Positions 2,147 to 41,592 of a stretch of DNA of 49,887 bases are shown here, piece by piece. How positions within the stretch are numbered: the first letter of the stretch is position 1; each line of letters begins with the position of its first letter. The stretch is from assembly GCA_003556385.1 (NCBI GenBank), contig PWRA01000113.1, positions 1-49,887 on the forward strand. Direction: 5' to 3'. Source of the DNA: Dehalococcoidia bacterium (lineage in GTDB: Bacteria; Chloroflexota; Dehalococcoidia; GIF9; AB-539-J10). A model generated the notes under the pieces. The model was not told the DNA's origin. It was given only the letters and a program-made list of their open reading frames with translations, and ran no database searches. The translations under genes were made by a program, and so were the position numbers.

Positions 2147-2351
2147 GAACCCCTCCTTCCATGGTGCTCGTCTCTGCTTGACCATCGACTCCCATACCCC
2201 ATAAGAATTGGAACGGGCCTATCGACGAATACGAGTCACCCGGCGGGGATAGGGTGACCTTGCGGATAAACACTGTTGAGTTCGTCCTATGCCGCCATAC
2301 AGCGGGCACCAAATGCTACCACAAAGCAAGACTCTTTTCTAATTCGGGCCT

Positions 2352-2729: not shown

Positions 2730-2818
2730 TATTCTCCTCTCCAATCGATCCGCTCAATAGACACTTCTGTGCCGTATCAGTCCGTGTCCGCACCGGTCAT
2801 CATCACCGGTACCTTTGC

Positions 2819-3931: not shown

Positions 3932-3995
3932 ATAGCTAAGTTCTGTCCTCGCCCTGACACCGGGAGATTAACGCCGGCATTGGCGAGGGCCACAT

Positions 3996-5684: not shown

Positions 5685-5702
5685 AGCACACACATTCACT
5701 CC

Positions 5703-7559: not shown

Positions 7560-7603
7560 GTGTGCACCTTCCTTCTTCTTATGCTCGCGTCACCAGCCCT
7601 CCC

Positions 7604-7876
7604 TCACTCCTCAAAATCTCCCCTCAGGGCATCGAACGATACTACCGGATGAACGGATTCAAACGGTGTCTGAGTGAGGGTGAGCACCCGTATCAGTGTC
7701 CTTTCGTCGGGCGCCTCCCACTCGCAGAAGTGTGTCTTCCCGGCAAAGTCGCAGTAACTGGATCTCCAGCACACGCCCTCCGGCGCATAATTGGGAAAAG
7801 CCTTCGCTCTGGCAATCAACTCGTCTCTGGTTAACGGCGCTCTGTGAACAACGATGAAGCGCGGCATCCTGCTCAT
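7604..7876 (-). CDS. small DUF4242-like protein (SCO4226-type), 90 aa
   Basis: Pattern PRFIVVHR...GVCWRSSYCDFAGKTHFCEWEAPDE..LIRV resembles DUF4242. Sits in-operon between the ADH and AOR genes. Confidence 0.55.
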   Translation of the reverse strand: MSRMPRFIVVHRAPLTRDELIARAKAFPNYAPEGVCWRSSYCDFAGKTHFCEWEAPDERTLIRVLTLTQTPFESVHPVVSFDALRGDFEE

Positions 7877-7929
7877 CTCCTTACTGCCTGCCGAAACTCC
7901 CTATAGCCAGAACAGAGGTCCGGCCAACG

Positions 7930-9099
7930 CTAGAAATCTATGCTCCTGCCTTCGTACGTATACCTGAAGAACCTGTCTGTCTCCGCAACATCCGGTATCC
8001 TCGGACTGACGATCAGCGAGCCATCGGCCATGACATTGTCGATCAGCTTATCCATCGCCCTGTCGAAAGCATGCAGGGGAATACCCAACTCCTTAATGCA
8101 AAGAGGCTGGTTGATCTCGCGAGCCAGCTCCCTTATCGTTTGGGCGACAACTGCCGCTGCCGTCCATCCTGCAGGCACTGGTACTCGCATAGCGTGAGCA
8201 ATCTCCACCCACAGCTCTTCAGCAGCTTCACCGACGAATTCGATGGTGTACGGCAGACATAGTCCAACGGCTCTACCGTGCGGGGTGTTGAAGACAGCCC
8301 CCAGGGAATGACCGGCAGCATGGGCCATAGCCGATAGCGCGTTGATGAAGCCTATACCTGCTATACAGGCTGCGTTGTGCATTTTCTCCCTCGCCTCCAT
8401 GTCGTTCCCGTCCCTCACTGCCCTGGGAAGATAGCGGAGAACAAGCTGAAGAGCCTTCATACACAGGCCATCTGTAAAGTCGTTCCTCCACGAACAGATA
8501 TACCCCTCGACCGCATGAGTCAGCGCGTCCATCCCAGTATCCGCCGTTACGTGAGGCGGCATTGCCCTTGCCATTTCCGGGTCAACGATGGCGATGTCGG
8601 GGACGATCTGGCGGTTGATGAGGCTCAGCTTCATATGATCTTCTCTGTCGCTCAGCACCACCGCGAACGTTGCCTCAGCGCCCGTACCTGAAGTCGTCGA
8701 GACGCAAACAAGCTTACACTTACCACCCAACCCCAGGTCCGGCATAAAGGGGTTTATCTCCTCCGGACGCACGTCCGGACTCTCGTAGGCTACCCGCATA
8801 GCCTTGCCAGCATCCATAACCGACCCCCCTCCCACAGACACAATCAAATCCGGCTCGCATGCCTGCATCAAAGACACACCCTTCTGGACTGTTTGGACGG
8901 ACGGGTCGGGCTCAACCTCGTCAAACACGCCCACAGTCTCTGTCCCGGCCAGAGTGAGTTGCTCCCTGACCCTATCAACCAGGCCCAGACCCACAATGTT
9001 CTTGTCGGTGACGATGAAGGCAGACTTAGCCTTCAGCTCGGCCAGATGGCTCATGGCGTCCTGTCCAAAAACCACCAAGGGGGCCACGAAGTACCACAT
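7930..9099 (-). CDS. iron-containing (group III) alcohol dehydrogenase, 389 aa
   Basis: ORF 7930..9126 begins with TTG. ATG 9099 (MWYFVAPLVVFGQ) has GGAGAG 9 nt upstream. Motifs GGGSVMDAGK, DPE....P...TADTGMDALTHA.E and H..AH.LG are typical of Fe-ADH. Confidence 0.85.
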   Translation of the reverse strand: MWYFVAPLVVFGQDAMSHLAELKAKSAFIVTDKNIVGLGLVDRVREQLTLAGTETVGVFDEVEPDPSVQTVQKGVSLMQACEPDLIVSVGGGSVMDAGKAMRVAYESPDVRPEEINPFMPDLGLGGKCKLVCVSTTSGTGAEATFAVVLSDREDHMKLSLINRQIVPDIAIVDPEMARAMPPHVTADTGMDALTHAVEGYICSWRNDFTDGLCMKALQLVLRYLPRAVRDGNDMEAREKMHNAACIAGIGFINALSAMAHAAGHSLGAVFNTPHGRAVGLCLPYTIEFVGEAAEELWVEIAHAMRVPVPAGWTAAAVVAQTIRELAREINQPLCIKELGIPLHAFDRAMDKLIDNVMADGSLIVSPRIPDVAETDRFFRYTYEGRSIDF

Positions 9100-9200
9100 A
9101 ACTACCTGCTCTCCATAAGACGCCAATGCCTGAAGGACAACGTTATGTCAATCAACATCATCGGTTCCAGGCCTACTCCTCGGTGGGGCCCGGCGAAAAT

Positions 9201-9695: not shown

Positions 9696-10490
9696 TTATT
9701 CACCCCCAAACTCCGGTTCTCGCTTCTGAAGAAACGCGTTGATCCCTTCCACAAAGTCCTTGGTACCGAACAGGAAGCTCTGGGCGTAGGTTTCGAAGTA
9801 GAGCTGCTGCTCGAGATCATTCAGCAGCCCGCTATGCACCGCCCGCCTGATCTGTGCCATAGCCAGCGGGGGCGCCTTGGCCAGCCTCCCGGCCAGTTGC
9901 ATAGCCTCGTCCATAAACCTGTCGTGGGGAAAGACCATGTCGACCAGCCCTATACGCTCGGCCTCGCTGGCGTCGATCAGGTCACCGGTATACATAAGCT
10001 GGAAGGACTTGCCCGTCCCCAGCAATCTCGGCAGCAGAAAGGTAGCGCCGCAGTCGGGAATCAGGCCCCGGCTTATGAAGGACAACCCGAACCTGGCGTT
10101 CTCAGAGGCAATCCGGATGTCCGAGAGCAATGCCAGGGACACGCCTCCTCCGGCAGCGACACCATTAACTGCTGCGATCACGGGTTTCTCCAGATCATAG
10201 AGGTCCCGTGCAAATGCCCCGAGGGCCTGTAGTCTCTGCTGTCGAGTCAAGCTCAGAGAGAGATCACTCAGCGAAGCCAGTGCGTTGACATCTCCTCCGG
10301 CGCAGAACCCCCTGCCGGCTCCAGTGATAACCAGGACCCGAACTTCATCGTCCTCCTGGATCTGTCTGAGCAGCCTGGGTAGCCAGACAAGACCCATTTC
10401 GGCGCTGATAGCATTCAGCTTGTCGGGGCGGTTGAGAGTCATCGTGGCAATCCCCTCTGACTTCTCAAGTATGATTTCTTTGAACTCCAC
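9696..10490 (-). CDS. enoyl-CoA hydratase/isomerase (crotonase) family protein, 264 aa
   Basis: The sequence LNRPDKLNA....VLVITGAGRGFCAGGD...PVIAAVNG.AAGGG..LAL..D.RIA is the crotonase fold signature. GTG start; first gene of the minus-strand operon. Confidence 0.85.
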   Translation of the reverse strand: MEFKEIILEKSEGIATMTLNRPDKLNAISAEMGLVWLPRLLRQIQEDDEVRVLVITGAGRGFCAGGDVNALASLSDLSLSLTRQQRLQALGAFARDLYDLEKPVIAAVNGVAAGGGVSLALLSDIRIASENARFGLSFISRGLIPDCGATFLLPRLLGTGKSFQLMYTGDLIDASEAERIGLVDMVFPHDRFMDEAMQLAGRLAKAPPLAMAQIRRAVHSGLLNDLEQQLYFETYAQSFLFGTKDFVEGINAFLQKREPEFGGE

Positions 10491-10727
10491 GGGTATCCTC
10501 TAGAACGGCTCTGCCTGGCCCTCTCAGGTTATCAGTCTGAGCATCTCTGCTCAGGACGACACAGCCTGCCTGTGGCGCCCATTATATCGAAAAGGGGGCA
10601 ACCTTGCCACGACCGTCTTGAAGCGCTGTGATACCGACCCAGCAAGCGTTCTCGAGATTGGTGTCAGACCCGGCCGATTCTGCTATCATACTTGTGGGGT
10701 AACCGGCCAACCCTGTGCCCTGGAATT

Positions 10728-11627
10728 ATGATTCCGCAAATGGAGCATGACTTGGAGGAAAGGAAGTCAGACCAGGACACTGCCCGCCGCATTGCAGAAT
10801 CCGCGGAGTTACAACTGGCTCCAGACGGAGAGAGATATCCGGTCATTGACCTGAAAACCACACTCTCCATCTCCCTGGAGAACCGGGTGTCGATGAGACA
10901 CGTGGAGACCACCGCGCTGCAGCAGGGCGTTGTTCCCTGTCGGTACCTGCGCAATATCGGCACAATCGGCGTGGATGGTCAGCTAAAGCTCCTGGAATCA
11001 ACCGTCGCCATCGTGGGAGCAGGCGGACTGGGGGGCACCGCAATTGAGCTGCTGGCCAGGTTAGGAGCAGGTCATCTCATTATCATCGACGATGGCCGCT
11101 TCGCTGATCATAACCTGAACAGGCAGCTTATGTCCGCACAGGACAACGTGGGCGAGCGAAAGGTTACCGTGGCAGCCAGCAGAGTCAGTAAGGTGAATTG
11201 CGCCGTCGAAGTCACCGCGTTCGGCGAACGGTTGACTAATGACAACGCCAGCAGGCTACTCCGCGGAGCCCGGGCTGTCGTCGACGGGCTTGACAATCTA
11301 TCATCGCGCTTTGCGGTTGAACATGCCTGCCGCGATCTGGGAATACCATATGTCTACGGGACTATTGCGGGCTTCTGCGGTCAACTGATGACCATCTACC
11401 CCGGGGATCCGGGGCTATCTTGTATCTACGGCTCATGCCGGGCCGATCTTGAGCAGGGTATGGAGAGCGCAACAGGCAACCCTGCCACTACCCCGGCGCT
11501 TGTCGCAGCATTGCAGGTGCAGGAGTCGGTGAAGATCATCACGGGCATAGGCACACCTTTGCGCAACCGGGTCCTCATGGTGGACGTCGCGCACGGCACG
11601 TTTGACACACTCGAGTTGACGCGGTGA
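10728..11627 (+). CDS. ThiF/MoeB/HesA-family E1-like adenylyltransferase with a ~75-85 aa N-terminal extension
   Basis: ORF 10692..11627 (TTG); the first ATG is at 10728 and the start is uncertain. Core RYLRNIGTIGVDGQLKLLESTVAIVGAGGLGG...IIIDDGRFADHNLNRQ is the E1 Rossmann/ATP motif. No rhodanese domain is visible. Confidence 0.8.
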   Translation: MIPQMEHDLEERKSDQDTARRIAESAELQLAPDGERYPVIDLKTTLSISLENRVSMRHVETTALQQGVVPCRYLRNIGTIGVDGQLKLLESTVAIVGAGGLGGTAIELLARLGAGHLIIIDDGRFADHNLNRQLMSAQDNVGERKVTVAASRVSKVNCAVEVTAFGERLTNDNASRLLRGARAVVDGLDNLSSRFAVEHACRDLGIPYVYGTIAGFCGQLMTIYPGDPGLSCIYGSCRADLEQGMESATGNPATTPALVAALQVQESVKIITGIGTPLRNRVLMVDVAHGTFDTLELTR

Positions 11628-11631
11628 GAGC

Positions 11632-11916
11632 ATGGCATCGGTCACAGTGCGCTTCTACAGTCTATGGCGGGCCCATCTGGGCATGGACAGCACGGAGCTG
11701 CAGGCGGACAGTACAGACGACGCCTTGGCGCAGCTGGAAGAGAGATTCGGCGCCCATGTCCGGGAGAGACTCGCCGCGGAAGGCATTCACCTCGACGGGA
11801 AGCTCCAGGACTATTCTCTAGTACTGCTCAACGGTACGAATCTGCGCAACCTGGCGAACACCGAGCTAAAGGAAGGCGATGTTCTACACATCTTCCCGCG
11901 CGCGATGGGCGGGTAG
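11632..11916 (+). CDS. MoaD/ThiS-family ubiquitin-like sulfur-carrier protein ending in Gly-Gly, 94 aa
   Basis: Starts 4 nt after the E1 stop. Right size for a beta-grasp protein. C-terminus ...GDVLHIFPRAMGG followed by the stop. Confidence 0.75.
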   Translation: MASVTVRFYSLWRAHLGMDSTELQADSTDDALAQLEERFGAHVRERLAAEGIHLDGKLQDYSLVLLNGTNLRNLANTELKEGDVLHIFPRAMGG

Positions 11917-11978
11917 AACGCGCTGCATACCAGCAGCAGCAGTTCCGAGAACCGTAACATAATGCTAGAATTGGCTCT

Positions 11979-12959
11979 ATGCCGGCCAATCTACCCCCAC
12001 AGTACTTCGAGGCGGAGAGGCGATACAGGGCAGCCAAAGACCCCGATGACAAGATCGCGGCCCTGCAGACGATGCTTGCCGTCATGCCCAAGCACAAGGG
12101 CACCGACAAGCTTCACGCTGATCTGAGAAGGCGGATCGCCAGGCACTCACAGGAAGCGGAGAAGAAGTCGGCCACGGCCAGAAGAACGGGCTTCTATATC
12201 AGCCGCGAAGGCGCCGGACAGGTAATGCTCGTCGGTCCGGCCAATGCCGGTAAATCGCAGCTCTTGGCGGCACTCACCGATGCCCTCCCCGAGATAGCCG
12301 AGTATCCGTTCACCACCCAAACGCCTGTGCCGGGAATGATGAAGTACGAAGACATCCAGATTCAGTTGGTGGACACGCCCCCCATCGGCCACAAGGAGGT
12401 GAAAATGCTCCTGGCAAACACCCTCAGAAATGCCGACCTCATTGTGATCGTGATAGACCTTTCTCTGGATCCGGTAGGCCAGGTCGACTTAACCCTTCAG
12501 GGCCTGAGCGACGCAAGAATCGTACCGTTGTCTGAGAAGGGCCCTGAAATCGGCGCGGGCGAATACCCCAGGAAGATGCTGATTGCCGGGAATAAGAACG
12601 ACCTGCCCGAAGCGGGCAAGAACTGGGACGCGTTAAGTTCGCACTATGGCGAGCTGTTCCCGGTCATCTCCTTGTCAGCCAGGGAAGGCAGCGGTCTGCA
12701 GGATTTCAGACGACTGCTTTATCAGGTACTAGACATCATCCGTGTATACACCAAAAGCCCGGGAAGCAAGGCCGACCTGAGCGACCCTTTGATACTGGAG
12801 AAAGGCAGCACGGTGGAAGAAGCAGCTGAGAGCCTGCACAAGGATTTCCGCCACAATCTGAAGTATGCAGTCGTCTGGGGTTCGGGGAAGTACGACGGGC
12901 AGCGCGCTAGCAAGGCACACGTGTTACAGGACGGGGACATCGTAGAGTTCCACATATAA
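11979..12959 (+). CDS. DRG-type (COG1163-like) GTPase with a C-terminal TGS domain, 326 aa
   Basis: G1 GPANAGKS, G3 DTPP, G4 NKND. N-terminal KHKGTDKLHADLRRRIA helix and C-terminal IRVYTKSPGSKADLSDPLIL.KGSTVEEAAESLHKDF...KYAVVWG......Q.....HVLQDGDIVEF match the DRG/Rbg1 layout. Confidence 0.8.
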   Translation: MPANLPPQYFEAERRYRAAKDPDDKIAALQTMLAVMPKHKGTDKLHADLRRRIARHSQEAEKKSATARRTGFYISREGAGQVMLVGPANAGKSQLLAALTDALPEIAEYPFTTQTPVPGMMKYEDIQIQLVDTPPIGHKEVKMLLANTLRNADLIVIVIDLSLDPVGQVDLTLQGLSDARIVPLSEKGPEIGAGEYPRKMLIAGNKNDLPEAGKNWDALSSHYGELFPVISLSAREGSGLQDFRRLLYQVLDIIRVYTKSPGSKADLSDPLILEKGSTVEEAAESLHKDFRHNLKYAVVWGSGKYDGQRASKAHVLQDGDIVEFHI

Positions 12960-13042
12960 CAACCGGCGACGCCGTTTCTTGCAAGCCCGGGACGTCAGAA
13001 ACGGCACGTCTCCCTCAGCACCGGGAGAGGAATATCCGGTGG

Positions 13043-13071
13043 TTGCAGTTTTCAGTGACCTCCATTATACT
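13043..13071 (+). promoter_or_regulatory. sigma70-type promoter TTGCAG-17nt-TATACT for the zinc-ribbon gene
   Basis: TTGCAG at 13043-13048, a 17-nt spacer, and TATACT at 13066-13071, in the intergenic region about 117 nt upstream of ATG 13189. Confidence 0.5.
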
Positions 13072-13188
13072 GGAATGGGTGGTTATAGATTTAGGTTATC
13101 GCTTCTAGGTGAGAGCCCTGGTGGCTCCACTCACAAACGTTGGATGACCGAAGCTCTAGCCCGGACTCAACAGAAAGGAGGTCATCCA

Positions 13189-13491
13189 ATGGGGTTTACA
13201 GACAAAGCGCTGGAATGCTCGGAGTGCGGTAATACGTTCACCTTTACTGCCGATGAGCAGGAATTCTATGCGAACAAGGGTTACGCCAACGAACCCAAGC
13301 GCTGCCCGGCATGCCGGGAGGCGCGAAGGGCCCAGCGCAGTAGCTACGGCGGGTACAGGTCCAGCCGTCAAATGTATGCCGCGGTCTGTGCTGAATGTGC
13401 CAAGGACTGTGAAGTGCCGTTCGAGCCTCGAGAAGACAGACCGGTCTACTGCAGCGACTGTTACAGCAGGCTCAAACCGAGCGGGCGATAA
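13189..13491 (+). CDS. zinc-ribbon protein (N-terminal CxxC...CxxC domain plus C-terminal CxxC-x17-CxxC domain), 100 aa
   Basis: ORF 12979..13491 trimmed to ATG 13189 (AAGGAGG upstream). CSECGNTFTFTADEQEFYANKGYANEPKRCPACR resembles the probable zinc-ribbon (zf-trcl-like) family. CAEC-17aa-CSDC is the CxxC-x17-CxxC motif. Confidence 0.7.
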   Translation: MGFTDKALECSECGNTFTFTADEQEFYANKGYANEPKRCPACREARRAQRSSYGGYRSSRQMYAAVCAECAKDCEVPFEPREDRPVYCSDCYSRLKPSGR

Positions 13492-30052: not shown

Positions 30053-31507
30053 ATGAAGGACAGCGACGCTAGACCCACAACCAACGATGCGGGTATTCCC
30101 GTGTCAAGCGAGGAGTTTTCCCTTACCGTGGGACCGGATGGCCCCGTCCTGCTTCAAGATCACTATCTTATGGAGCAGATGGCCAACTTCAACCGGGAGA
30201 TGATTCCGGACCGCCAGCCCCATGCCAAGGGCTCCGGGGCCTTCGGACACTTGGAGGTGTCCCGGGACGTCAGCGCGTACACCAGGGCGGCAGTATTCCA
30301 GCCGGGCACCAGGACCGAGGTTCTGGCCCGGTTCTCCACGGTGGCCGGTGAGAGCGGCAGCCCCGACACCTGGCGGGACGTACGCGGCTTCGCGCTCAAG
30401 TTCTACACGAGCGAGGGGAACTACGACATGGTGGGGAATAACACCCCGGTCTTCTTTGTGCGCGACCCGATGAAGTTCCAGCATTTCATCCATTCCCAGA
30501 AGCGCCGGGCGGACAGCGGCCTGCGCGATCATGACATGCAGTGGGACTTCTGGACGCTGTCGCCCGAGTCGGCCCATCAAGTCACCATCCTGATGAGCGA
30601 CCGCGGAGTCCCCAGGAGCTACCGCCACATGAACGGCTACACCAGCCACGCCTACATGTGGGTTAACGCCAAAGGCGAGCGCTTCTGGGTGAAATACCAC
30701 TTTAAGACCGACCAGGGCATCGAAAACCTCACTCAAGAGGAGGCCGACCGGATCGCCGGTGAGGATGCTGACTATCACCGCCGCGATCTGTTTGATGCGA
30801 TCAATCGGGGGGAGTCTCCCAGCTGGACGCTGAAAGTACAGATCATGCCCTTTAAGGAGGCTGAGACATACCGGTTCAACCCCTTTGATCTTACCAAGGT
30901 CTGGTTCCACGCCGACTACCCACTTCACGAGGTGGGCCGGCTGACCCTGGACCGCAACCCCGGCGACTTTCACAGTGAGATCGAGCAGGCCGCGTTCGAG
31001 CCCAACAACCTTGTTCCTGGCATCGGCGCCAGCCCGGACAAGATGCTGCTCGCCCGGCTGGTTTCCTACGCCGACGCCCACCGGGCACGCCTGGGTGTCA
31101 ACTACAAGCAGATTCCGGTCAACCGGCCGAGGACCCCGATACACAGCTACAGCAAGGGCGGTGTGATGCGGATCCAGAATGTCTCTGACCCGGTCTATGC
31201 ACCCAACTCAAAGGGCGGCCCCAAAGCCGACCCGGCGCAGTACCCGGAAGACGCCGTATGGAGTGCCGACGGTGACTTTGTGCGCGCCGCCTACACCAAG
31301 CGCAAGGACGACGACGATTTCGGACAGGCGGGAGCTCTGGTGCGCAGGGTCATGGATGATACCAGGCGTGACCTGCTGGTATCCAATGTGGTAGGGCACC
31401 TGAAGAAGGGCGTTTCCGAGCCCGTGCTGCAGCGCGTTTTTGAGTACTGGCGCAATATCGACAGGGAGACCGGCGATCGCATTGCCAGTGGTATGCGAGC
31501 GAGTTGA
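30053..31507 (+). CDS. katA: monofunctional heme catalase (small-subunit clade), 484 aa
   Basis: [49 protein letters not shown], and the proximal Tyr region RL.SY.DAHR.RLG.NY. Confidence 0.95.
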
Positions 31508-31758
31508 TGTCACCATACCTGTGAGCAGCCGGTTGCCGGTGTCATTGGGGCGGTAGCCTTCGTGCGGGCCCGGGTCATTCTGCCATACGCGCCTGCCTTC
31601 GCCGCCGGTGCTAATAATTGGTTGTTGTAGAAGAACTGATCCCGGAGTCGCAGCGTTCGAGCCATGTCGATCTGGCAACCATGGGCGCGATAATCAGTTT
31701 TGTGGCCATGATGGTGCTTGAGGTAGCGTTTGGCCAGCGACCCATGAGTTGTAACGGG

Positions 31759-31982
31759 ATGAAGCTGTTCACAAAAGCTGAACTGAGGAAATATGAAGGC
31801 ACCAATGGCATCGTCTATGTTGCCTGTGCAGCGAAGTGTACGATGTCTCTCGGAGTTTCCACTAGAGGAAAGGCGTTCACCAGGTCATGTATCGCGCCGG
31901 GCGCGACTTCACCGAGGCACTGGGCCGGGCACCTCACAGGCCCGACATGCTGGACAGATTCCCGGTGATAGGTGTACTTTAG
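31759..31982 (+). pseudogene. cytochrome b5-like heme/steroid-binding domain gene disrupted by a frameshift and an in-frame TAG
   Basis: ATG 31759 gives MKLFTKAELRKYEGTNGIVYVACAAK. The homology continues only after a frame change near 31830-31836: VYDVSRSFH-TAG(31863-31865)-RKGVHQVMYRAGRDFTEALGRAPHRPDMLDRFPVIGVL-stop (31980-31982). The TAG sits where these proteins have a conserved Trp (S.LW..G.H). Confidence 0.6.
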
Positions 31983-32009
31983 GTGTGCCTATAGAATCGG
32001 AGGAACCAG

Positions 32010-32423
32010 ATGACAGATGAGAAGGCTGATAAGAAGCGGACAGTGCTCTTCGTATGCACACACAACTCAGGCCGTAGCCAGATGGCGGAAGCGTTCTTCA
32101 ATCAGCTTGCCGGAGAAAAGGCACGTGCCGTCAGCGCCGGTACCGACCCCGATAGTGCTGTTCAGCCTGCCGTTGTTCAGGTGATGCGGGAATTGGGCAT
32201 AGACCTGAGTAACCAGAGGCCGAAGCCGTTAAGCACAGACCTGATGGACCAGGCGGGCAGAGTCATAACCATGGGCTGCGGCGCGGAAGCGGGCTGCCCG
32301 GCTACCGCGGTCGAGCCCGAAGAATGGGAACTGCAGGACCCGAAAGGCAAGACTCTTGACCGGGTCAGGCAGATACGGGATGAGATCAGGCTTAAGGTTG
32401 TTGACCTCCTCAGGGATATGTAG
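32010..32423 (+). CDS. arsC: LMW-PTP-fold arsenate reductase (thioredoxin-coupled ArsC type) or protein-tyrosine phosphatase, 137 aa
   Basis: P-loop VLFVCTHNSGRSQMAEA and the downstream ITMGCGAEAGCP Cys pair typical of Trx-coupled ArsC. No other ars genes are in the window. Confidence 0.7.
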   Translation: MTDEKADKKRTVLFVCTHNSGRSQMAEAFFNQLAGEKARAVSAGTDPDSAVQPAVVQVMRELGIDLSNQRPKPLSTDLMDQAGRVITMGCGAEAGCPATAVEPEEWELQDPKGKTLDRVRQIRDEIRLKVVDLLRDM

Positions 32424-32445
32424 GCAATAGAGTCAGGCAGCATAA

Positions 32446-33414
32446 ATGGGAAACCGTCTTGTTCACCGAGCATACGACCTTGAGCCGGGGCGCGAGAGCC
32501 TCCTCCGCGAAGCGCTCGCCGGGCTACGTAGGCCGCAAAAGGAGTTGCCCACCAAATACCTCTACGATGAACGTGGCGCAGGCCTGTTCGACCGCATCTG
32601 CAAGCTGGAAGACTATTACATCACCCGGACCGAGGCATCCATCATGGAAGCCAATATCGGCGAGATCGCCAAGTGTCTCGGACGCCTTGTAGCCCTGGTT
32701 GAGTACGGCAGCGGAAACTGCAAGAAGGTGAGACACCTGCTGGACCATCTCGACGATCCTGTAGCCTACATTCCGATCGACATTTCCCGGGAGCAGTTGC
32801 TGCACGTGGCGGAGCAGCTGGCCTCAGATTATCCCGATCTCGAGGTGCAGCCTGTATGCGCTGACTACCTGAGCGTTCTTGATCTGCCCGCATCAAAGCG
32901 CCCCGCCCGGCGCAGATGCGTCTATTTCCCCGGCTCGACGATCGGCAATTTCGAGCCAGCCGCGGCGCAGTTCTTTTTCAAGCACATCAGAGGCGTGTGC
33001 GGCAGGACCGGTGCCCTGCTCATCGGTGTAGACCTGCAAAAAGACCCGGCTGTACTGCACCGCGCCTACAACGACAGAGAGGGTATCACCGCTGCCTTCA
33101 ACCTAAACGTGCTCGAGCGGATGAACCGCGAGCTCGGGTGCGATTTCCAGCCCGCCCGTTTCTACCATTACGCTTTCTACAACCCCGGACAGGGAAGGAT
33201 CGAGATGCATCTCATCAGCCGCCACGCTCAGACAGTCCGCGTGGGCGACGAGGCGATCCCTATTGCTGCCGGAGAGAGCATATGGACCGAGAGTTCATAC
33301 AAGTACACGCTTGACGGATTCGCGCGCCTGGCCGCTGCCGGAGGCTTCAAGACCGAGAGGGTCTGGCTTGACGAGCAACAGTGGTTCAGCGTGCAGTATC
33401 TGGTACCGGACTAG
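32446..33414 (+). CDS. egtD: L-histidine N-alpha-methyltransferase (hercynine synthase, EgtD/EanA family), 322 aa
   Basis: The sequence LPTKYLYDERGAGLFDRICKLEDYYITRTE...VEYGSGNCKK...YIPIDIS...YFPGSTIGNF...LLIGVDLQKD...RAYNDREGITAAFNLNVLERMNREL...GRIEMHL.S...Q.V......I....GE.I.TE.SYKY matches mycobacterial EgtD along its length, as I recall that sequence. Confidence 0.85.
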   Translation: MGNRLVHRAYDLEPGRESLLREALAGLRRPQKELPTKYLYDERGAGLFDRICKLEDYYITRTEASIMEANIGEIAKCLGRLVALVEYGSGNCKKVRHLLDHLDDPVAYIPIDISREQLLHVAEQLASDYPDLEVQPVCADYLSVLDLPASKRPARRRCVYFPGSTIGNFEPAAAQFFFKHIRGVCGRTGALLIGVDLQKDPAVLHRAYNDREGITAAFNLNVLERMNRELGCDFQPARFYHYAFYNPGQGRIEMHLISRHAQTVRVGDEAIPIAAGESIWTESSYKYTLDGFARLAAAGGFKTERVWLDEQQWFSVQYLVPD

Positions 33415-33444
33415 CGCCAGGGCGGCGCGTCCGCAGTTCATAGG

Positions 33445-36400
33445 CTACTTGCATGGTATCAGCCGCACCGTGTCCTTCTCCTCGAGCACCTGCGCCAGCG
33501 CCGACACAGTCTCCTCTATCTCCTCCTCCGTAGTGTAGCGGCTCAACGAGAACCGTACCGCGCAGTGCGCGTCTTCCTCAGTTCTGCCCATAGCGAGAAG
33601 GACGTGGGTGGGCTCCGGAGAGCCCGACCGGCATGCCGAGCCCGAAGACAGCGAAACGCCCCGCTGGTCGAGCATTATGACAAGCGACTCGCCGCGCAGG
33701 CCGGGGAAGGTCAGGTTGAGCGTGTTGGGCAGCCTGTACTTCGGGTGGCCATTCAGTCGCACCCCGGGCACCAGCCGTCTCACGCCTTCCTCCAGTCTGT
33801 TCCGCAGACCTCGTACGCGATCAGCCTCCGACAGGGCGAAGGCCGCTAGCTCAGCCGCCTTGCCCAGCCCAACCGCGCCGGGGATGTTTTCGGTGCCCGC
33901 CCGTATCCCGCCTTCCTGTTTGCCTCCATGAACAAGCGGCTCCAGATGGATGCCCTTCGCGACGTACAGTGCACCTATTCCCTTGGGCCCATGTAGCTTG
34001 TGCCCCGAAATGCTCAGCATGTCTACCCCTAGTTCCTCAACATCCACGCCTGTCTTGCCGACCGCCTGGATAGCATCGGTGTGGAAAAGCACCCCGCTCT
34101 CGTGACAAACAGCGCTCAACTCTCTGATCGGCAGGATCGTGCCGGTCTCATTATTGGCCATCACAATACTAACCAGGACCGTGTGGGCGTCGAGGGCGGC
34201 CCGGAGCGTGGCAGGGTCAAGCCAGCCGTTGCTGTCTACCTCAAGGTACGTAATGCTGTAGCCCAGTCTTTCCAGAAACCGACAGGTTTCCATCACCGCC
34301 GGGTGCTCCACGGTTGTTGTCACGATGTGTCTGCCCCTATGACGCAGGGCGAAAGCGGCTCCCTTGATGGCCAGGTTATTGGACTCAGAGCCTCCGCCCG
34401 TGAAGACCAGACTCCTCGGTCGGGCGTTGATAAGCGCGGCCACCTGACGGCGCGCATGCTCCAGGGCATCCCTGGCCACGAGACCCGAAGCATGTATGCT
34501 GGACGGATTCCCCGCCTCGACACCAAGGTACGGGATCATGGCGTCGCGCACCGCGTCAGCGACCTGCGTCGTGGCGTTGTTATCAAGATATATGCGCCTC
34601 GCCGGCCTGGTTGGCCCTGCGACCGCGCTCAACGCACACTCCTCCCCTAATGCGGGCCGACTGCCCACTGCGCAGCAGGTCTCGTCGGTACCGGACTCGA
34701 CTCTTTCCACGTCGCACAGCAAAGCCTTGTACACCGGAAAGCCGGAGATCTTGTCGTAGTTACCCAGGTCGGTGAGTTCATTCACATTCCACTTCTGCCA
34801 CGCCTCGGGACCGACAGGCGTTCCACCGCCGAACATGCACTCTACACATCCCCTCATGATGTCCCCGGTCACCCTGGCCCGGAAGGGCACGCTTCCCCTG
34901 GCACTCTTAACCCGAACCAGGTCGCCATTCCGGATACCCCTTGCCGCTGCATCCTCGGAGTTGATCTCTACCAGCGGTTCGGGTGTGTCCCGGACCAATC
35001 CTTCGATACCATGGTGCTGAGACCTGAAATCAGTCTGCGGTCTGGCGCCGGAGTTAAAGACCAGCGGAAACCTCTCTGCCAGCTTCGGACTGCCCAGGGG
35101 GCCTTCGGTTGGCTCGATATACACAGGTAACGGCTCATAGCCGTACCCCTCCAATATCGTAGACCATATCTCGAATTTTCCCGTCGGTGTCTCGAACCCC
35201 ATTCTGCCGTCCTTCCGCAGTCTACCCTTCTCCCACTTCCTGTACTCCAGCATAGGTGTCGAACGCCTTACCCAGCCACCGGCCCGCTTTACGTCCTCCA
35301 GACTGTATCCCGAGTCCTTAAGAACATAGCGGAGCATGTCCTCCTCAGTCTGTGGGAACAGATGGCCGTAGCCCAGGTGCATAGCCAGCTCGGCCATTAT
35401 CAAATAGTCGTTGCGTGCCTCGCCCAACGGCTCGATAACCCTCTCACGCAGCCGGAAAACGGGACCGTAGGTCATATACGAGTCGTTTTCGAACATCGTG
35501 GTGGCCGGCAAAACGATGTCGGCGTAGGCAGCATCGGCCGTGAGCTGGCGATCGATGCAGACCACAAAGTCGAGTCCGGCGAGTGTATCTCTCCACACCG
35601 GCGTCTGCGGCCACGACGTCAGCAGGGAAGCCCCGTGAATGATCAGCCCGCGCGTCCGGTACGGGTGTCCTTTCAGCACAGAATCGACGAGGGCGATGGC
35701 GTGCGACTCTCCCCGATAGTCGCTGTACACTGGAAAATCGCGACGCCCGATGGCCATGTCCAGATTCGGATTCTCCAGGTTGCACGCACGATTGATGGGA
35801 AACTCGCTATCCAGCATGGTAAGCCCGATGCCGCCCGGCACATCGAGATGACCGGCCAGGGCGAACAGGGTCAGAGCCGCCCTGGCAGACTGAACGCCGC
35901 TGTTGGAATATTCCAGGCCGGTGTACATGAGCAGCGCAGCACCCCTGGCCCTGGCGATGCGCCGGGCCAGATCTCTGATCCGGTCCGCCGAAATCCCCGT
36001 TATGGTCTGCACCACGTCAGGCCTGAAGTGCTGAACGTACCTCCTCAGTTCATCAAAGCAATGACACCAGTTCTCGGCGAACTCCTCATCGTAGAGGTCC
36101 TCGTCCACAATGACCTCTATCATGCTCAAGGCCAGAGCGCCATCGGTGCCCGGCCGGATCGGAATCCACTCGCCACCGGTGCGCACCACCGCCTCCGTAC
36201 GGCGTGGGTCGATGAAGACGATGTCCGCACCGCGCCCGGCTGCCATCTCCAATCGCGACATGTCCGCAGGGGGTGAATCGGTGGCCGGGTTAGTGCCCCA
36301 GACCACCACCATGCCGGAGTTCTCGATGTCGGCAAACATGTTCATCTGCATTCTCCCCATGGTCACATGAGGAGCGATCATGTGCAGCGAGACGTAACAC

Positions 36401-36837
36401 AGGGCGCCAACGCCTGTTGTGTTCATAGACCCGAACGGGAACAGCACATTAGAGGCCGAAGACACGGCTACGCCTTTAGGCTGGTACATATCGCACAGCG
36501 ACAGTTCCTGGGCGCCACGACCCGTATAGATGCATACGGCCTCCGGCCCCGACTCTTCTCTGATCTCGAGTATACTATCGGTGATGGTCCTGTACGCCTC
36601 CTGCCAGGAAATACGCTGGAAATCGTACGATCCCCGGGGTCCGACCCGCCTTAGAGGATGCAGAATCCGGTGTCTGGAGTAGACTATCTCCGGTGCATGC
36701 TCTCCCCGCCGACAGATCATACCCAGCGTATGGGTGTCATCGGCCCTTATTTCAACCAGCCTGCCACCCACAAGGCCGACCTCCACCCAGCAACCCGCCG
36801 GACATACGCCACAGAGAGCCTTCCGCCACTCGACCAT
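33445..36837 (-). CDS. fusion protein: N-terminal bis-pterin (Mo/W) oxidoreductase module plus C-terminal class V PLP cysteine desulfurase (NifS/IscS-like). Candidate metallopterin-dependent ergothioneine synthase.
   Basis: ORF 33445..36984 (1179 aa). The start is uncertain and is placed at ATG 36837 (MVEWRKALCGVCPAGC), just before the MopB-type C-x2-C-x3-C...C cluster motif. About 750 aa of MopB-family sequence follow, including a C-terminal pterin-binding barrel (INSEDAAARGIRNGDLVRVKSARG). Then comes RIYLDNNATT...SGHKLHGPKG (PLP Lys)...SSGSAC (persulfide Cys). Confidence 0.75.
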   Translation of the reverse strand: MVEWRKALCGVCPAGCWVEVGLVGGRLVEIRADDTHTLGMICRRGEHAPEIVYSRHRILHPLRRVGPRGSYDFQRISWQEAYRTITDSILEIREESGPEAVCIYTGRGAQELSLCDMYQPKGVAVSSASNVLFPFGSMNTTGVGALCYVSLHMIAPHVTMGRMQMNMFADIENSGMVVVWGTNPATDSPPADMSRLEMAAGRGADIVFIDPRRTEAVVRTGGEWIPIRPGTDGALALSMIEVIVDEDLYDEEFAENWCHCFDELRRYVQHFRPDVVQTITGISADRIRDLARRIARARGAALLMYTGLEYSNSGVQSARAALTLFALAGHLDVPGGIGLTMLDSEFPINRACNLENPNLDMAIGRRDFPVYSDYRGESHAIALVDSVLKGHPYRTRGLIIHGASLLTSWPQTPVWRDTLAGLDFVVCIDRQLTADAAYADIVLPATTMFENDSYMTYGPVFRLRERVIEPLGEARNDYLIMAELAMHLGYGHLFPQTEEDMLRYVLKDSGYSLEDVKRAGGWVRRSTPMLEYRKWEKGRLRKDGRMGFETPTGKFEIWSTILEGYGYEPLPVYIEPTEGPLGSPKLAERFPLVFNSGARPQTDFRSQHHGIEGLVRDTPEPLVEINSEDAAARGIRNGDLVRVKSARGSVPFRARVTGDIMRGCVECMFGGGTPVGPEAWQKWNVNELTDLGNYDKISGFPVYKALLCDVERVESGTDETCCAVGSRPALGEECALSAVAGPTRPARRIYLDNNATTQVADAVRDAMIPYLGVEAGNPSSIHASGLVARDALEHARRQVAALINARPRSLVFTGGGSESNNLAIKGAAFALRHRGRHIVTTTVEHPAVMETCRFLERLGYSITYLEVDSNGWLDPATLRAALDAHTVLVSIVMANNETGTILPIRELSAVCHESGVLFHTDAIQAVGKTGVDVEELGVDMLSISGHKLHGPKGIGALYVAKGIHLEPLVHGGKQEGGIRAGTENIPGAVGLGKAAELAAFALSEADRVRGLRNRLEEGVRRLVPGVRLNGHPKYRLPNTLNLTFPGLRGESLVIMLDQRGVSLSSGSACRSGSPEPTHVLLAMGRTEEDAHCAVRFSLSRYTTEEEIEETVSALAQVLEEKDTVRLIPCK

Positions 36838-37065
36838 TGTATGATTCGGGTCAGAGGCGCCTGGGATTTCCTCCGGAGGTCTGTGCATTCTTCCCATATA
36901 GTAACAGCAAGGGCAGGTCATCCTCAATCTCTTTGGTCGGCACATAGCCGGGGTTCGATGACGGAGAGGAGGGAGCGGGGGCAAGACACAGGCAGGCTAC
37001 ATCGACTATAATGGGATGGCAATGGGCAGCAACCGCCCACCCGGCTGTGCGGAACCTTAAAGAGT

Positions 37066-37950
37066 ATGCGGACATGGTTTCTGGAGACCAGACCACAGTT
37101 CCTGATAATCTCCCTAATACTCATACTCCTCGGCACGTCGATCGCCTGGTATCAGGGCTACTTCAACCCGCTACATGCCGGACTGGCCCTTATCGGGATG
37201 CTCCTGGTCCATATCAGTGCCAACACGCTGAACGACTATTTCGACTTCCAGAGCGGTATAGACCTGGAGGTGAAGAGGACCCCCTTCAGCGGGGGGAGCG
37301 GCATCCTGGCCGCCGGGCTCCTGGCTCCGGCCTCTGTGCGACGGTTCGGTCTGATTTGCTTCCTGCTGGCCGTTCCGATAGCCGTCTTCTTCGTCGTCGT
37401 CAGGGGCTTGCTTCTCCTTCCCATCTTTGTCGGAGGCGCACTCTGCCTCGCGCTGTATACAACCCACCTGACCAGGTGGGGGCTGGGTGAGCTCGGTGCC
37501 GGCCTCGGGCTGGGCGCATTACCCGTACTGGGAGCCTACTTCGTACAGTCGGGAGCCTACACCTGGGAAGCGGTGGTCGCCGTTATCCCTTCAGGCATTC
37601 TGCTGCACAATGGTTTGCTGCTGTTTGAGTTCCCCGACGTGGAGGCCGATCAGAAGGGCGGGAAGAGGACTTTCCCCGTGGTCATGGGCAAGAACAGGGC
37701 AGCCGTTCTCTACTCTGTGCTGACGATAGCCATGTATGCGTGGATAGCCGCCTGGTCGATAGCAGGGCTCATGCCCATATGGACCCTGCTCGCGCTCCTG
37801 ACTATCCCGCTGGCATGGCGAGCCATGGCAGGAGCCCTGAACCATGAGGAAGAGAGCAAATTCCTCCCCGGCCTGAAGGCCAACCTCGCGGTACTGCTCG
37901 GCGTTCAGACCCTCCTTGCCGCGGGTTTCATTGTGGCAGCGACCCTATAG
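37066..37950 (+). CDS. UbiA-superfamily aromatic prenyltransferase (MenA-like), 294 aa
   Basis: Polytopic membrane protein. First Asp-rich motif NTLNDYFDFQSGID. Diverges from the fusion gene. Confidence 0.75.
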   Translation: MRTWFLETRPQFLIISLILILLGTSIAWYQGYFNPLHAGLALIGMLLVHISANTLNDYFDFQSGIDLEVKRTPFSGGSGILAAGLLAPASVRRFGLICFLLAVPIAVFFVVVRGLLLLPIFVGGALCLALYTTHLTRWGLGELGAGLGLGALPVLGAYFVQSGAYTWEAVVAVIPSGILLHNGLLLFEFPDVEADQKGGKRTFPVVMGKNRAAVLYSVLTIAMYAWIAAWSIAGLMPIWTLLALLTIPLAWRAMAGALNHEEESKFLPGLKANLAVLLGVQTLLAAGFIVAATL

Positions 37951-39158: not shown

Positions 39159-40472
39159 TCAGGGGGACGTCCTGTCGACCGTAAAGAGGTTCACCAGGTC
39201 GACGGTGTCGACAACGTTCAGCTTCCGGAAGAGCAGCGAAAAGCGCTCTTCCAGAATCTGCCTCATGCCCGCCAGTCTATCCTCAGGAATGTTCCACATC
39301 TCCTCTTTGAAGAGACCGAAGCCCTTCTTACGCGTGCTGTACAGAAACTGCTCGTCTGTGTCTCCGGGCTTCTTTTCGTCTGCATACCTTCGGCGGATCT
39401 CTTCATAGATGCGCTCCAGCAGGTCGTTCGGGAAAAAGCCGCCATCATATATCAGGTTCTGGAATCCAGTGGCCAGGTGCACTTCTGCCGTCCCTGCATC
39501 CGGGAACATCTCGAACGCCTCGTCCGGCAAAGTCGAGGCGCCGTGCTGCACGGCCCCCGCCAGCCCGTACTCATCTCGGGCCACCCTTGAGATCTCGCGG
39601 AGCGCCTCGAAATCGATCTCCACCTCGGCCATCGATCCGTCCGGCAGAACCACACCCCCATGCTTCGTCCCGGTCTGAACGCTGATCTTGGAGATGCCGG
39701 ACGTCTCGGACCCCAGATGCCGGAGGTACCCGGACATGAACGCTCTCAGGTCACCCACGGTGCTGTTCCTGCCGCCGACCTCTCCGATCTCACCGCCCAC
39801 CGAGATGGTGACTCCCCCCGGCTCGATGCCGCGAATCAAGCGGGTCATGTCGCCGGTTACCCGGCAGTTTATCTCCTGCTGCTCCTCGAGCGTCTCCCGT
39901 TCCAGGTCGACGAGGGTAGAGGCGTCGACATCGATGTTCAGGAAGCCGGCAAAGACCGCCCCCTTAATCAGGTCACTGACGGCCTTCAACTCCGCCTGTG
40001 AATCCGAGGCATACTTGCCGCTGCTGAACTGAAAATGGTCTCCTTGAAGGAAAACAGGCCCACTGAAACCTTCCCTGACCGCCGCGGCCAGGACGCACGA
40101 GGCATACTCGGCCGGCGACTGGTCGGTATAGCCGATCTCAGAGCGGGCGATTTCAAATATGAAGGCGCCTACCTTGTGCTTCAGGGCGGCCCGGAAGACG
40201 GCCCTTGCCACCTGATAGGTGATACCGCGGATATTTATCGCCGGGACGGTCTTAGAGACGTAGAGCCCGTTGCCGGCAGCGGTGTACAGGCCGTGAGTGC
40301 TCGCCAGACAGATATCCTGCTTGCGCGCAGACTCGCGAATCGTCTTCCGGGCCCTCTCTCTGTCCGACTTCCCGGGAGAAAAGACGGCGCCGTACACAAC
40401 GGCGTCCATATCGCCGGGCGGCACACCCTTCTTCTCGACATCCCCGCCCCGTCTCTCGTCATCATGCTTCAT
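39159..40472 (-). CDS. fba: class II (metal-dependent) fructose/ketose-bisphosphate aldolase family protein, long form, 437 aa
   Basis: ORF 39159..40952 trimmed to ATG 40472 (GGAGGAGGG 5 nt upstream); the upstream 160 codons overlap pfk out of frame. Motifs VFLQGDHF, GGEIGEVGG, VQTGTKHGG and VQHGASTLPDE....F.....AEVHLATGFQN match class II aldolases. Confidence 0.7.
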   Translation of the reverse strand: MKHDDERRGGDVEKKGVPPGDMDAVVYGAVFSPGKSDRERARKTIRESARKQDICLASTHGLYTAAGNGLYVSKTVPAINIRGITYQVARAVFRAALKHKVGAFIFEIARSEIGYTDQSPAEYASCVLAAAVREGFSGPVFLQGDHFQFSSGKYASDSQAELKAVSDLIKGAVFAGFLNIDVDASTLVDLERETLEEQQEINCRVTGDMTRLIRGIEPGGVTISVGGEIGEVGGRNSTVGDLRAFMSGYLRHLGSETSGISKISVQTGTKHGGVVLPDGSMAEVEIDFEALREISRVARDEYGLAGAVQHGASTLPDEAFEMFPDAGTAEVHLATGFQNLIYDGGFFPNDLLERIYEEIRRRYADEKKPGDTDEQFLYSTRKKGFGLFKEEMWNIPEDRLAGMRQILEERFSLLFRKLNVVDTVDLVNLFTVDRTSP

Positions 40473-41592
40473 GCTTTCCCTCCTCCAGCCTGAGTATCGT
40501 CCGCCGTCCGTTATATCTCTCCACGTCATACTGCGTATCGACATCAACAAATCTGGCCCGCCCGATAGCATTTTCAATAGCGCACATAGTGACTCTTCCG
40601 TTGCGGACGCAGACCATTTTGCCGAAGATGCCTGCCGCCACAAGCTCCATCGCAGCGATGCCGAAGTACCTGCCCATTCTCCTATCGTAGGCACAGGGAG
40701 CACCACCCCGCTGAAGGTGGCTGAGGTTGATGCTACGCGTCTCCAGTCCGGTCGAGGCCTCGATCTCCCGGGCCAGAGAATCTCCGACACCTCCCAGGAA
40801 CTTATGCCCAAAGGCATCGACGCCTTCCTGTCTGGTAAACTCGGTGCCGCCTGCCGGCTTTGCGCCCTCAGAAACCACGATGATCTCGTATCTGGCTCCC
40901 TCTTCTCTTCCCTCGACAAGAAGTTCATTGACTCTGTCCGGAGAAAAATCATGTTCCGGGATGAGGATTATAAAGGCACCGCTCGCTTCGCCCCCCTCCA
41001 AGGCCAACCAGCCGCCATGCCTGCCCATGGTCTCCACAACGAATATTCTCTTGTGCGAACCCGCCGTGGTACGCAGGCGGTCGATCTCTTCAGTGATGAC
41101 GCTAACTGCCGTCTCGAATCCGAGCGTATAATCGGTCTCGGGCAGGTCCTTGTCGATGGTCTTGGGTATGGCGACCACCGGCACGCCCTCACGGTCCAAC
41201 CTGTGGGCGACTCCCAGCGTGTCATCGCCGCCGATCGCTATCAGTGCGTCCAGTCGCAGCTTCTCGATGTTGGCCAACACCCTCCGGGACTGGTCGTTCT
41301 TCGGATCGTAGGGATTGGTCCGCGACGTACCTAGCATGCTGCCACCGTACCTATCCCACGTCCGGACGACGGCCTGGTCCAGCGGCATGACGTACTCTTC
41401 CATGCCTGCTGCGCCGGGCTTGACTTCAATGAGTCCCTTCCATCCGTCCTTGATGCCCACCGGCGTATATCGGGTCATCCTTTCTCGCTGCAGCCGATCA
41501 TCAAGCGCCGTCTTCACTATCCATTTAATGGCGGGATTAATGCCGGCGCAGTCCCCTCCCCCGGTCAGGATACCTATCCTGTTCTCTTTCAT
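40462..41592 (-). CDS. pfp: 6-phosphofructokinase, predicted PPi-dependent type, 376 aa
   Basis: RIGILTGGGDCAGINPAI. The IGGDDTLG (Asp rather than Gly) and IPKTIDKDL (Lys rather than Gly) positions are the known discriminators of PPi- versus ATP-dependent PFKs. Start placed at ATG 41592 (GAGGAGG 9 nt upstream). The stop overlaps the fba start by 11 nt. Confidence 0.8.
   Translation of the reverse strand: MKENRIGILTGGGDCAGINPAIKWIVKTALDDRLQRERMTRYTPVGIKDGWKGLIEVKPGAAGMEEYVMPLDQAVVRTWDRYGGSMLGTSRTNPYDPKNDQSRRVLANIEKLRLDALIAIGGDDTLGVAHRLDREGVPVVAIPKTIDKDLPETDYTLGFETAVSVITEEIDRLRTTAGSHKRIFVVETMGRHGGWLALEGGEASGAFIILIPEHDFSPDRVNELLVEGREEGARYEIIVVSEGAKPAGGTEFTRQEGVDAFGHKFLGGVGDSLAREIEASTGLETRSINLSHLQRGGAPCAYDRRMGRYFGIAAMELVAAGIFGKMVCVRNGRVTMCAIENAIGRARFVDVDTQYDVERYNGRRTILRLEEGKHEA

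Follow-up and report, generated by a model that had tools for sequence, protein, structure and literature searches.

A probable oxygen-independent ergothioneine locus in a Dehalococcoidia bacterium: egtD and a metallopterin oxidoreductase-cysteine desulfurase fusion

Could two convergent genes in a Dehalococcoidia genome provide a route to ergothioneine that needs no oxygen? We addressed this question in a stretch of 49,887 nucleotides (nt), hereafter the window, from Dehalococcoidia bacterium (GTDB GIF9; AB-539-J10; assembly GCA_003556385.1, contig PWRA01000113.1, forward strand 1-49,887). Here egtD, the gene for a histidine methyltransferase, lies tail-to-tail with a long open reading frame (ORF) that joins a MopB-family module to a cysteine desulfurase. 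An earlier note on this DNA had proposed that the pair makes ergothioneine without O2, and had named as its model a two-module metallopterin-dependent ergothioneine synthase (MES) from Caldithrix abyssi; its description agrees with the primary paper on the family (Beliaeva & Seebeck, JACS Au 2022; PMC9516567). Our comparison supports the proposal, with 52-60 % identity to active MES enzymes and a full set of defining residues. We conclude that the locus very probably encodes a complete two-step, O2-independent ergothioneine pathway consisting of EgtD and MES.

The C. abyssi enzyme (CaMES) has 1136 residues, of which 1-718 form the MopB module and 747-1136 a functional cysteine desulfurase (PMC9516567). 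Its Fe4S4 cysteines are residues 14, 17, 21 and 48, and its predicted metal ligand is Cys153. Cys153, Lys952, Cys1074 and Cys1135 are required (C153S and K952A are inactive), and Cys1097 is conserved and dispensable. Sulfur passes strictly within one polypeptide chain, the C-S step can run in reverse, and the isolated C-terminal module has desulfurase activity. CaMES together with Mycobacterium smegmatis EgtD is enough for de novo ergothioneine formation in E. coli, and four enzymes from distant phyla (CaMES, EaMES, AbMES and hvMES) were all productive there from trimethylhistidine (TMH, or hercynine). CaMES was equally productive with Mo, W or no supplement (PMC9516567).

In 2022 the family was reported from about 55 genomes. 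Its pairing with EgtD and its restriction to anaerobes were published, as was a membership rule (conservation of Cys153, Lys952, Cys1074, Cys1097 and Cys1135; Table S1 of PMC9516567), and the same table already includes four Dehalococcoidia/Dehalococcoidales proteins. Since the family, the outline of its mechanism, the EgtD pairing and its presence in Dehalococcoidia are all in print, the present locus adds a member to a known family. Its value lies in a better annotation, in evidence for a family much larger than about 55 genomes, and in a clade-specific convergent gene arrangement.

The known alternatives follow the same logic, in which EgtD or EanA makes TMH and a second enzyme, EanB or one of the O2-dependent sulfoxide synthases EgtB/Egt1, sulfurises C2; their folds and chemistry are unrelated to those of MES. 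We scanned essentially all window ORFs of at least 220 residues with Pfam profiles and found no EgtB (FGE-sulfatase/DinB), EgtC (GATase) or EanB (rhodanese) domain among them, which agrees with the earlier note.

The fusion gene, its partner egtD and the MES family

The large ORF runs uninterrupted over 33445-36984 on the minus strand and encodes 1179 residues if read from a TTG and 1130 if the ATG at 36837 is the start. Both genes, the 30-nt gap between their stop codons, the MopB and desulfurase domains and the motifs C-x2-C-x3-C...C, SGHKLHGPKG and SSGSAC lie where the earlier note had placed them, the domains now being confirmed by profile matches that are very strong and not due to chance. 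The parts of the locus are as follows.

32446..33414, plus strand: egtD, predicted by homology to encode a 322-residue S-adenosylmethionine-dependent L-histidine N-alpha-trimethyltransferase with TMH as product
33415..33444, no strand: 30-nt intergenic gap between two convergent stop codons, from the ORF coordinates; the related clade repeatedly shows such short gaps between convergent genes
33445..36837, minus strand: MES, conserved core of 1130 residues; uninterrupted ORF, assigned from full-length identity to active MES
36676..36831, minus strand: Fe4S4-binding domain (PF04879); Cys9, Cys12, Cys16 and Cys42 at codons 36811-36813, 36802-36804, 36790-36792 and 36712-36714
35383..36669, minus strand: MopB molybdopterin-oxidoreductase domain (PF00384, E 1e-37); predicted Mo/W ligand Cys147 at codon 36397-36399
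34723..35043, minus strand: molybdopterin-dinucleotide-binding beta-barrel domain (PF01568, E 1e-19)
34594..34722, minus strand: inter-module linker of about 43 residues between the Pfam borders, poorly conserved, with variable and gapped alignment columns
33514..34593, minus strand: IscS/NifS-type pyridoxal phosphate (PLP) cysteine desulfurase module (PF00266, E 2e-81; TIGR03402, 494 bits; matches to PDB cysteine desulfurases with E 1e-100 or better)
33997-33999, 33631-33633 and 33562-33564, minus strand: codons of PLP Lys947, persulfide Cys1069 and Cys1092, placed by alignment to CaMES
33445..33513, minus strand: C-terminal tail ...RLIPCK and stop codon, with penultimate Cys1129 at codon 33451-33453

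In the numbering of the 1179-residue ORF, the Pfam matches are ordered Molybdop_Fe4S4 52-103, Molybdopterin 106-534, Molydop_binding 648-754 and Aminotran_5 798-1157; residue numbers elsewhere count from the ATG at 36837. A bis-pterin cofactor is predicted from the Molybdopterin and Molydop_binding domains. No curated family model captures the protein. The C-terminal part is best matched by FeS_nifS (TIGR03402; 494 bits, below the cutoff of 531) and also falls below the IscS equivalog NF010611 (394 bits, cutoff 548). The MopB part gives partial matches to Fdh-alpha (TIGR01591; 273 bits, cutoff 666), PhsA (245 bits, cutoff 694) and DmsA, all below curated cutoffs. Neither Pfam nor NCBIfam has a model for the fusion as such.

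We compared the protein with the four characterised enzymes, using reference sequences taken as optical character recognition (OCR) text from the supplement of PMC9516567. These contain some errors, and because of this noise the identities that follow are lower bounds. End-to-end identity over about 1130 residues was 56 % to CaMES, 57 % to EaMES, 52 % to AbMES and 60 % to hvMES. The N-terminal module was 55-64 % identical to the references (699-875 bits), with hvMES closest (64 %), and the C-terminal module 51-58 %. All nine defining residues stand in the correct columns against the four references, as listed here with their CaMES counterparts; conservation was counted in 71 full-length MES homologues.

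Cys9, Cys12, Cys16 and Cys42 (CaMES Cys14, 17, 21 and 48): Fe4S4 cluster, invariant in 71/71
Cys147 in GVGALCYV (CaMES Cys153): metal ligand, invariant in 71/71
Lys947 in SGHKLHG (CaMES Lys952): PLP binding
Cys1069 in SSGSACRSG (CaMES Cys1074): persulfide
Cys1092 in DAHCAVRF (CaMES Cys1097): conserved, dispensable
Cys1129 in the terminal ...LIPCK (CaMES Cys1135): essential relay at the penultimate position, present in 70/71

Lys947, Cys1069 and Cys1092 of the desulfurase module are each kept in 68-70 of the 71 homologues, and the 23-residue spacing from Cys1069 to Cys1092 equals that in CaMES. Overall, the window protein resembles CaMES, EaMES, AbMES and hvMES in its Fe4S4 motif, MopB module, linker, IscS-type desulfurase and ...PC[KR] tail. 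It is also of similar length (1130-1147 residues against 1136 in CaMES) and is partnered with an EgtD of the histidine-specific type. It differs from them in belonging to a separate Dehalococcoidia-type clade whose nearest relatives are 71-86 % identical; hvMES, in a neighbouring clade, is the nearest characterised enzyme. Single-chain fusion, full-length similarity, every Table S1 residue and an adjacent, apparently histidine-specific EgtD are thus found together, and by all the sequence-level criteria of the primary paper the gene is supported as a member of the MES family.

The assignment of EgtD draws on both profiles and residues. The protein matches PF10017 (E 3e-109) and scores 392.3 bits against the egtD equivalog TIGR03438, above the cutoff of 290.9. 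Its identity is 40 % with the M. smegmatis enzyme and 43 % with that of C. abyssi. By alignment, ten of ten substrate-contact residues are identical (Y39, F47, Y56, G161, T163, N166, Y206, M252, E282 and S284). These are the histidine-binding positions of M. smegmatis EgtD given in the EgtD structure papers, and the numbering is internally consistent with a reconstructed M. smegmatis sequence. Because all the contact residues are kept, specificity for histidine is favoured over a tryptophan or tyrosine betaine methyltransferase, which supports reading the protein as a histidine-specific enzyme.

The nearest solved structures to the N-terminal module are PsrA, the polysulfide/thiosulfate reductase of Thermus thermophilus (2VPW, 230 bits), and acetylene hydratase of Syntrophotalea acetylenica (2E7Z, 227 bits over residues 7-672); scores fell to about 155 bits for solved formate dehydrogenases and to about 115 bits for nitrate reductases, and no MES structure was in the PDB copy searched. 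Acetylene hydratase shares with MES a cytoplasmic single-subunit MopB architecture, an N-terminal Fe4S4 cluster, a Cys metal ligand and a non-redox-type reaction. Unlike MES, it has no fused desulfurase and hydrates acetylene without forming a C-S bond, and its similarity to the module is about one quarter of that of MES. The earlier note had spoken of active-site features common to MES and acetylene hydratase. This holds for the Cys ligand but not for the catalytic Asp13 of acetylene hydratase, which follows the second cluster cysteine and is replaced in the window protein by Pro13 (CGVCPAGC), a proline in 71/71 homologues. PsrA shares the MopB fold and Cys ligand and handles sulfane sulfur at its Mo centre; it differs in being exported by the twin-arginine (Tat) pathway, in working in a respiratory complex with PsrB and PsrC, and in cleaving S-S rather than forming C-S bonds. 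The C-terminal module matches E. coli IscS (1P3W) and Helicobacter pylori NifS (5WT2) with E 1e-97 to 1e-104 and shares their PLP lysine and SSGSAC cysteine. In contrast to stand-alone NifS/IscS, it falls below both equivalog cutoffs, is fused to a MopB module and carries the extra Cys1092 and the relay Cys1129.

These assignments suggest how the pathway could work. EgtD would convert histidine to TMH. The C-terminal desulfurase, through Lys947-bound PLP, would move the sulfur of L-cysteine onto Cys1069 as a persulfide, and the sulfur would then pass within the same chain, via Cys1129 on the flexible tail, to a Mo or W centre. Cys147 of the N-terminal bis-pterin module would ligate this centre, and the same module would bind the Fe4S4 cluster on Cys9, Cys12, Cys16 and Cys42. 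Attack of the TMH imidazole C2 on an M(VI)=S group would release ergothioneine and leave an M(IV) centre to be re-sulfurised. The M=S electrophile cycle is the authors' proposal for CaMES (PMC9516567), and the cofactor as bis-molybdopterin guanine dinucleotide, like the choice of metal, likewise has the status of a proposal there. The properties of CaMES (its residue requirements, intramolecular transfer, reversibility and desulfurase activity) presumably carry over to the window enzyme, as inferred from the shared residues.

Conservation of the fusion and of the egtD pairing

To place the locus among its relatives, we used the closest 80 species-representative loci (L001-L080) from a genome scan with the N-terminal module alone as query; C. 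abyssi is not among them. The scan returned 567 tblastn-confirmed relatives, a number that we do not use as a count of MES because one search pattern could match other MopB enzymes too. The desulfurase module directly follows the N-terminal one on the same strand in every one of the 80 loci with enough sequence, and more than 120 protein clusters of 1130-1150 residues, 71-86 % identical, bear the same fusion. Most of the 80 read through without interruption; in seven the contig ends inside the gene, two are frameshifted and one has a nonsense codon, these last three being in MAGs. The frameshifts lie in the desulfurase part (L020 near 9080, L074 near 7950-8080) and are either assembly errors or signs of decaying genes. 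We considered selenocysteine for the in-frame stop of L045 (6223-6225) and rejected it: the codon is TAG and takes the place of the conserved Trp78, so that it is either a simple nonsense lesion or an error.

The fusion recurs in two independently assembled close relatives, namely metagenome-assembled genome (MAG) GCA_007123295.1, which is 99.84 % identical to the window over 15.5 kb, and an SRA-derived contig (about 82 % nt identity). Both keep the gene order polyprenyl synthase, UbiA, MES, egtD, the last being convergent. In the sister MAG (L081; contig SKLJ01000017.1), positions 10001-13327 correspond to window 33445-36771, and the protein in the database record begins only at an internal GTG, giving 1108 residues. 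It lacks Cys9, Cys12, Cys16 and the PF04879 match, and its start is therefore almost certainly mis-called.

The position of egtD varies across the family. It is convergent and directly downstream of MES in 26 of the 80 loci, co-directional and downstream in 10, and absent within about 5 kb in 44. The tail-to-tail pair in the clade of the window contrasts with the co-directional or unlinked egtD of other loci. The co-directional loci include ones labelled Aminicenantes and Planctomycetes. For those without a nearby egtD, most labels are Calditrichia, Gemmatimonadota, KSB1, Fidelibacterota, Krumholzibacteriia and Latescibacterota, and across these 44 loci we found no conserved alternative neighbour of MES.

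Clades were assigned from identity, bit scores and a neighbour-joining tree, in which the window falls in a clade whose labels are nearly all Dehalococcoidia or Chloroflexota. Its closest species-representative genome among the 80 is a Dehalococcoidia MAG whose N-terminal module is 82 % identical. Of the 25 members of this clade, 24 have egtD and MES convergent, which shows that the arrangement is inherited.

Alternative readings of the locus

Several observations weigh against reading the locus as a working ergothioneine pathway. AbMES, which has all the defining residues, yielded no more than about 0.4 uM of product in E. coli (PMC9516567), so conservation of residues is no guarantee of high activity. 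Because they are convergent, egtD and MES are not co-transcribed and do not form an operon. In the way of cofactor biosynthesis, Mo/W uptake or further pterin enzymes, the window shows just a ThiF/ThiS-type pair and one tungstopterin enzyme, an aldehyde:ferredoxin oxidoreductase (AOR). The MES start codon is ambiguous (ATG at 36837, 36888 or 36897, or TTG at 36984), and all four candidates lie upstream of Cys9; no convincing Shine-Dalgarno sequence precedes any of them, and the homologue N-termini do not decide either. An AlphaFold2 model of full-length MES, built with 28 homologues that are all more than 70 % identical, had a mean pLDDT of 45 and a pTM of 0.35, and its quality does not allow any statement on how the modules pack, on the linker or on the route of the sulfur. 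Finally, codon 138 (36424-36426) is ATG, placing Met in FGSMNT nine residues before the ligand Cys147, at a position that is Pro (FGSPNT) in 71/71 homologues, in the four active MES and in acetylene hydratase. A scan of 31400-37200 for promoters and terminators gave nothing above shuffle expectation, and no terminator-like site in the 30-nt convergent gap.

The methionine gives rise to the alternative that survives best: a true MES gene whose allele is impaired or inactive through Pro138 to Met, either because the locus is decaying or because the base calls are wrong. The invariance of the proline speaks for it. So does the nature of the change, two adjacent bases (36425-36426) in a region where the 99.84 %-identical sister assembly reads CCG (Pro). 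A cytochrome-b5-like gene adjoining the locus is a pseudogene in both assemblies, and frameshift or nonsense lesions of MES occur in 3 of the 80 loci. On the other side, the 1130-codon ORF is otherwise intact with its catalytic residues all present, the sister carries Pro138, and position 138 is not among the residues shown to be essential. Moreover, a dinucleotide difference in a metagenome assembly is equally explained by a consensus or strain artefact. An error in the assembly, a rare variant or a harmful change could each account for Met138, and we consider an impaired allele unlikely.

A second alternative, which we rate as less likely still, is an MES homologue with another main substrate or direction, such as sulfur exchange, ergothioneine desulfurisation, sulfurisation of another imidazole or heterocycle, or selenium transfer to form selenoneine. 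IscS-type enzymes accept selenocysteine as well, and egtD is missing within about 5 kb from 44 of the 80 MES loci. The C-S step of CaMES is chemically reversible, and the MES authors speculate on related Mo enzymes that sulfurise other heterocycles (PMC9516567). However, in the clade of the window egtD is the immediate neighbour in 24 of 25 members, and the adjacent EgtD has the histidine-specific residue set. All four MES homologues assayed, from distant phyla, made ergothioneine (PMC9516567), and we saw no ergothioneine-catabolic or selenium-pathway genes in the window. Synthesis of ergothioneine from TMH thus remains the preferred function.

Very little probability attaches to a third reading, in which a generic formate dehydrogenase- or polysulfide reductase-like enzyme is fused to a NifS/IscS that matures its own cofactor and lies next to egtD by chance. 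Desulfurases do sulfurate the molybdenum cofactor in other systems (PMC9516567), Fdh-alpha, PhsA and DmsA appear as partial NCBIfam matches, and databases name the relatives "IscS subfamily cysteine desulfurase" or "cysteine desulfurase NifS", much as the earlier note had foreseen in expecting automatic annotation to mislabel the gene. Against this, the scores to oxidoreductase families are far under their cutoffs (Fdh-alpha, 273 against 666 bits). The same note had named grouping of the N-terminal module with formate or nitrate reductases as grounds for dropping its proposal, and the opposite was found: the module is 55-64 % identical to active MES at 699-875 bits, compared with about 230 bits for PsrA and acetylene hydratase, about 155 for formate dehydrogenases and about 115 for nitrate reductases. 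No candidate N-terminus has an RR (twin-arginine) motif that would indicate a Tat signal, and no PsrB/PsrC-type partner adjoins the gene, whose neighbours are UbiA and EgtD. The MES-specific Cys1092 and Cys1129 are present and the egtD linkage is conserved. This reading is effectively refuted by sequence. An assembly or frameshift artefact joining two genes, another ground that had been named, is refuted by the continuous ORF and by the same fusion in two independent assemblies, in more than 120 protein clusters and in every one of the 80 loci that has room for it; we found nothing in its favour, and its probability is negligible.

Place of the locus in the family and its surroundings

No other Mo/W-pterin enzyme is known to form a C-S bond, and MES represents a third independent sulfur-insertion route to ergothioneine. 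Knowledge of it rests on one 2022 paper, and it has neither a Pfam or NCBIfam model nor a solved structure. Our literature search found no further primary work after 2022, only reviews and passing citations, and no paper joining ergothioneine with Dehalococcoidia. A 2026 review of ergothioneine (PMC13547098) treats three pathways only (mycobacterial, fungal and EanA/EanB), with the MES paper in its reference list alone. The enzyme is abundant, with nearly invariant catalytic residues in at least 80 genomes at species level that come from many phyla rich in anaerobes, and a Dehalococcoidia-type clade is defined by its conserved convergent egtD partner. Public annotation systematically mislabels MES as IscS/NifS and at least once has cut its start, with the loss of three Fe-S cysteines; the conserved residue set could seed a dedicated hidden Markov model or annotation rule.

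The locus makes ergothioneine a candidate redox buffer for organisms of this kind. In the lineage of the window, egtD lies directly downstream of a haem catalase gene and an ArsC/low-molecular-weight phosphatase (LMWP) gene, which would be the basis for placing the pathway in an oxidative-stress module. A tentative and rather doubtful extension is that ergothioneine from MES and EgtD serves, within such a module, as a principal low-molecular-weight thiol for a large Dehalococcoidia clade that is mostly uncultured, and that the tail-to-tail arrangement was retained across this clade, possibly with a regulatory meaning through convergent transcription. If true, the roughly 55 genomes of 2022 would greatly understate how widespread MES is, and how important ecologically, in anoxic sediments and aquifers.

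The gene content of the window is of an anaerobe type, with an AOR, two FrhB-like proteins, a NiFe-hydrogenase/complex-I-like module and HypA plus HypB. The AOR and the ThiF/MoaD pair that had been reported from a first reading are both present. The following features lie outside the egtD-MES pair.

5703-7559: tungstopterin AOR (aldehyde:ferredoxin oxidoreductase)
10692-11627, plus strand: ThiF-family E1-like enzyme
11632-11916, plus strand: ThiS/MoaD-type carrier of 94 residues ending in Gly-Gly, 5 nt after ThiF and followed by a TGS-domain GTPase (11979-12959)
30053..31507, plus strand: monofunctional haem catalase (PF00199, E 2e-181), upstream of egtD on the same strand
31759-31982, plus strand: cytochrome-b5-like haem-binding pseudogene between the catalase and ArsC-like genes; its repaired peptide matches PF00173 at 25.8 bits
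32010..32423, plus strand: LMW phosphatase/ArsC-type thiol reductase (PF01451, E 2e-22), 22 nt upstream of egtD and also present in L081

The catalase gene adjoins egtD only in the window and its close relatives L081 and L082, and we rejected this linkage as a general feature of MES loci. The ArsC/LMWP-type protein scores below every NCBIfam arsenate-reductase cutoff. The cytochrome-b5-like pseudogene carries a frameshift after ...GIVYVAC and a TAG in place of a conserved Trp, and both lesions are also in the sister assembly. The ThiF-ThiS/MoaD pair is a candidate sulfur-carrier system for the molybdenum cofactor, thiamine or another target.

The tungsten-type AOR belongs to a minus-strand cluster (1034-9126), whose other products are two Fe-S flavoproteins of FrhB/FdhB type, a RidA-family (L-PSP) protein, an acyl-CoA ligase of the AMP-forming kind and an iron alcohol dehydrogenase; its content suggests a module for acid/aldehyde/alcohol interconversion. 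On the minus strand at 39159-40952, the longest ORF (597 residues) is an over-extension, and mechanical ORF lists mislead here. By comparison with L081, this region instead holds overlapping genes for a class-II fructose-bisphosphate aldolase (437 residues) and a PFK-family kinase (376 residues, about 40462-41592).

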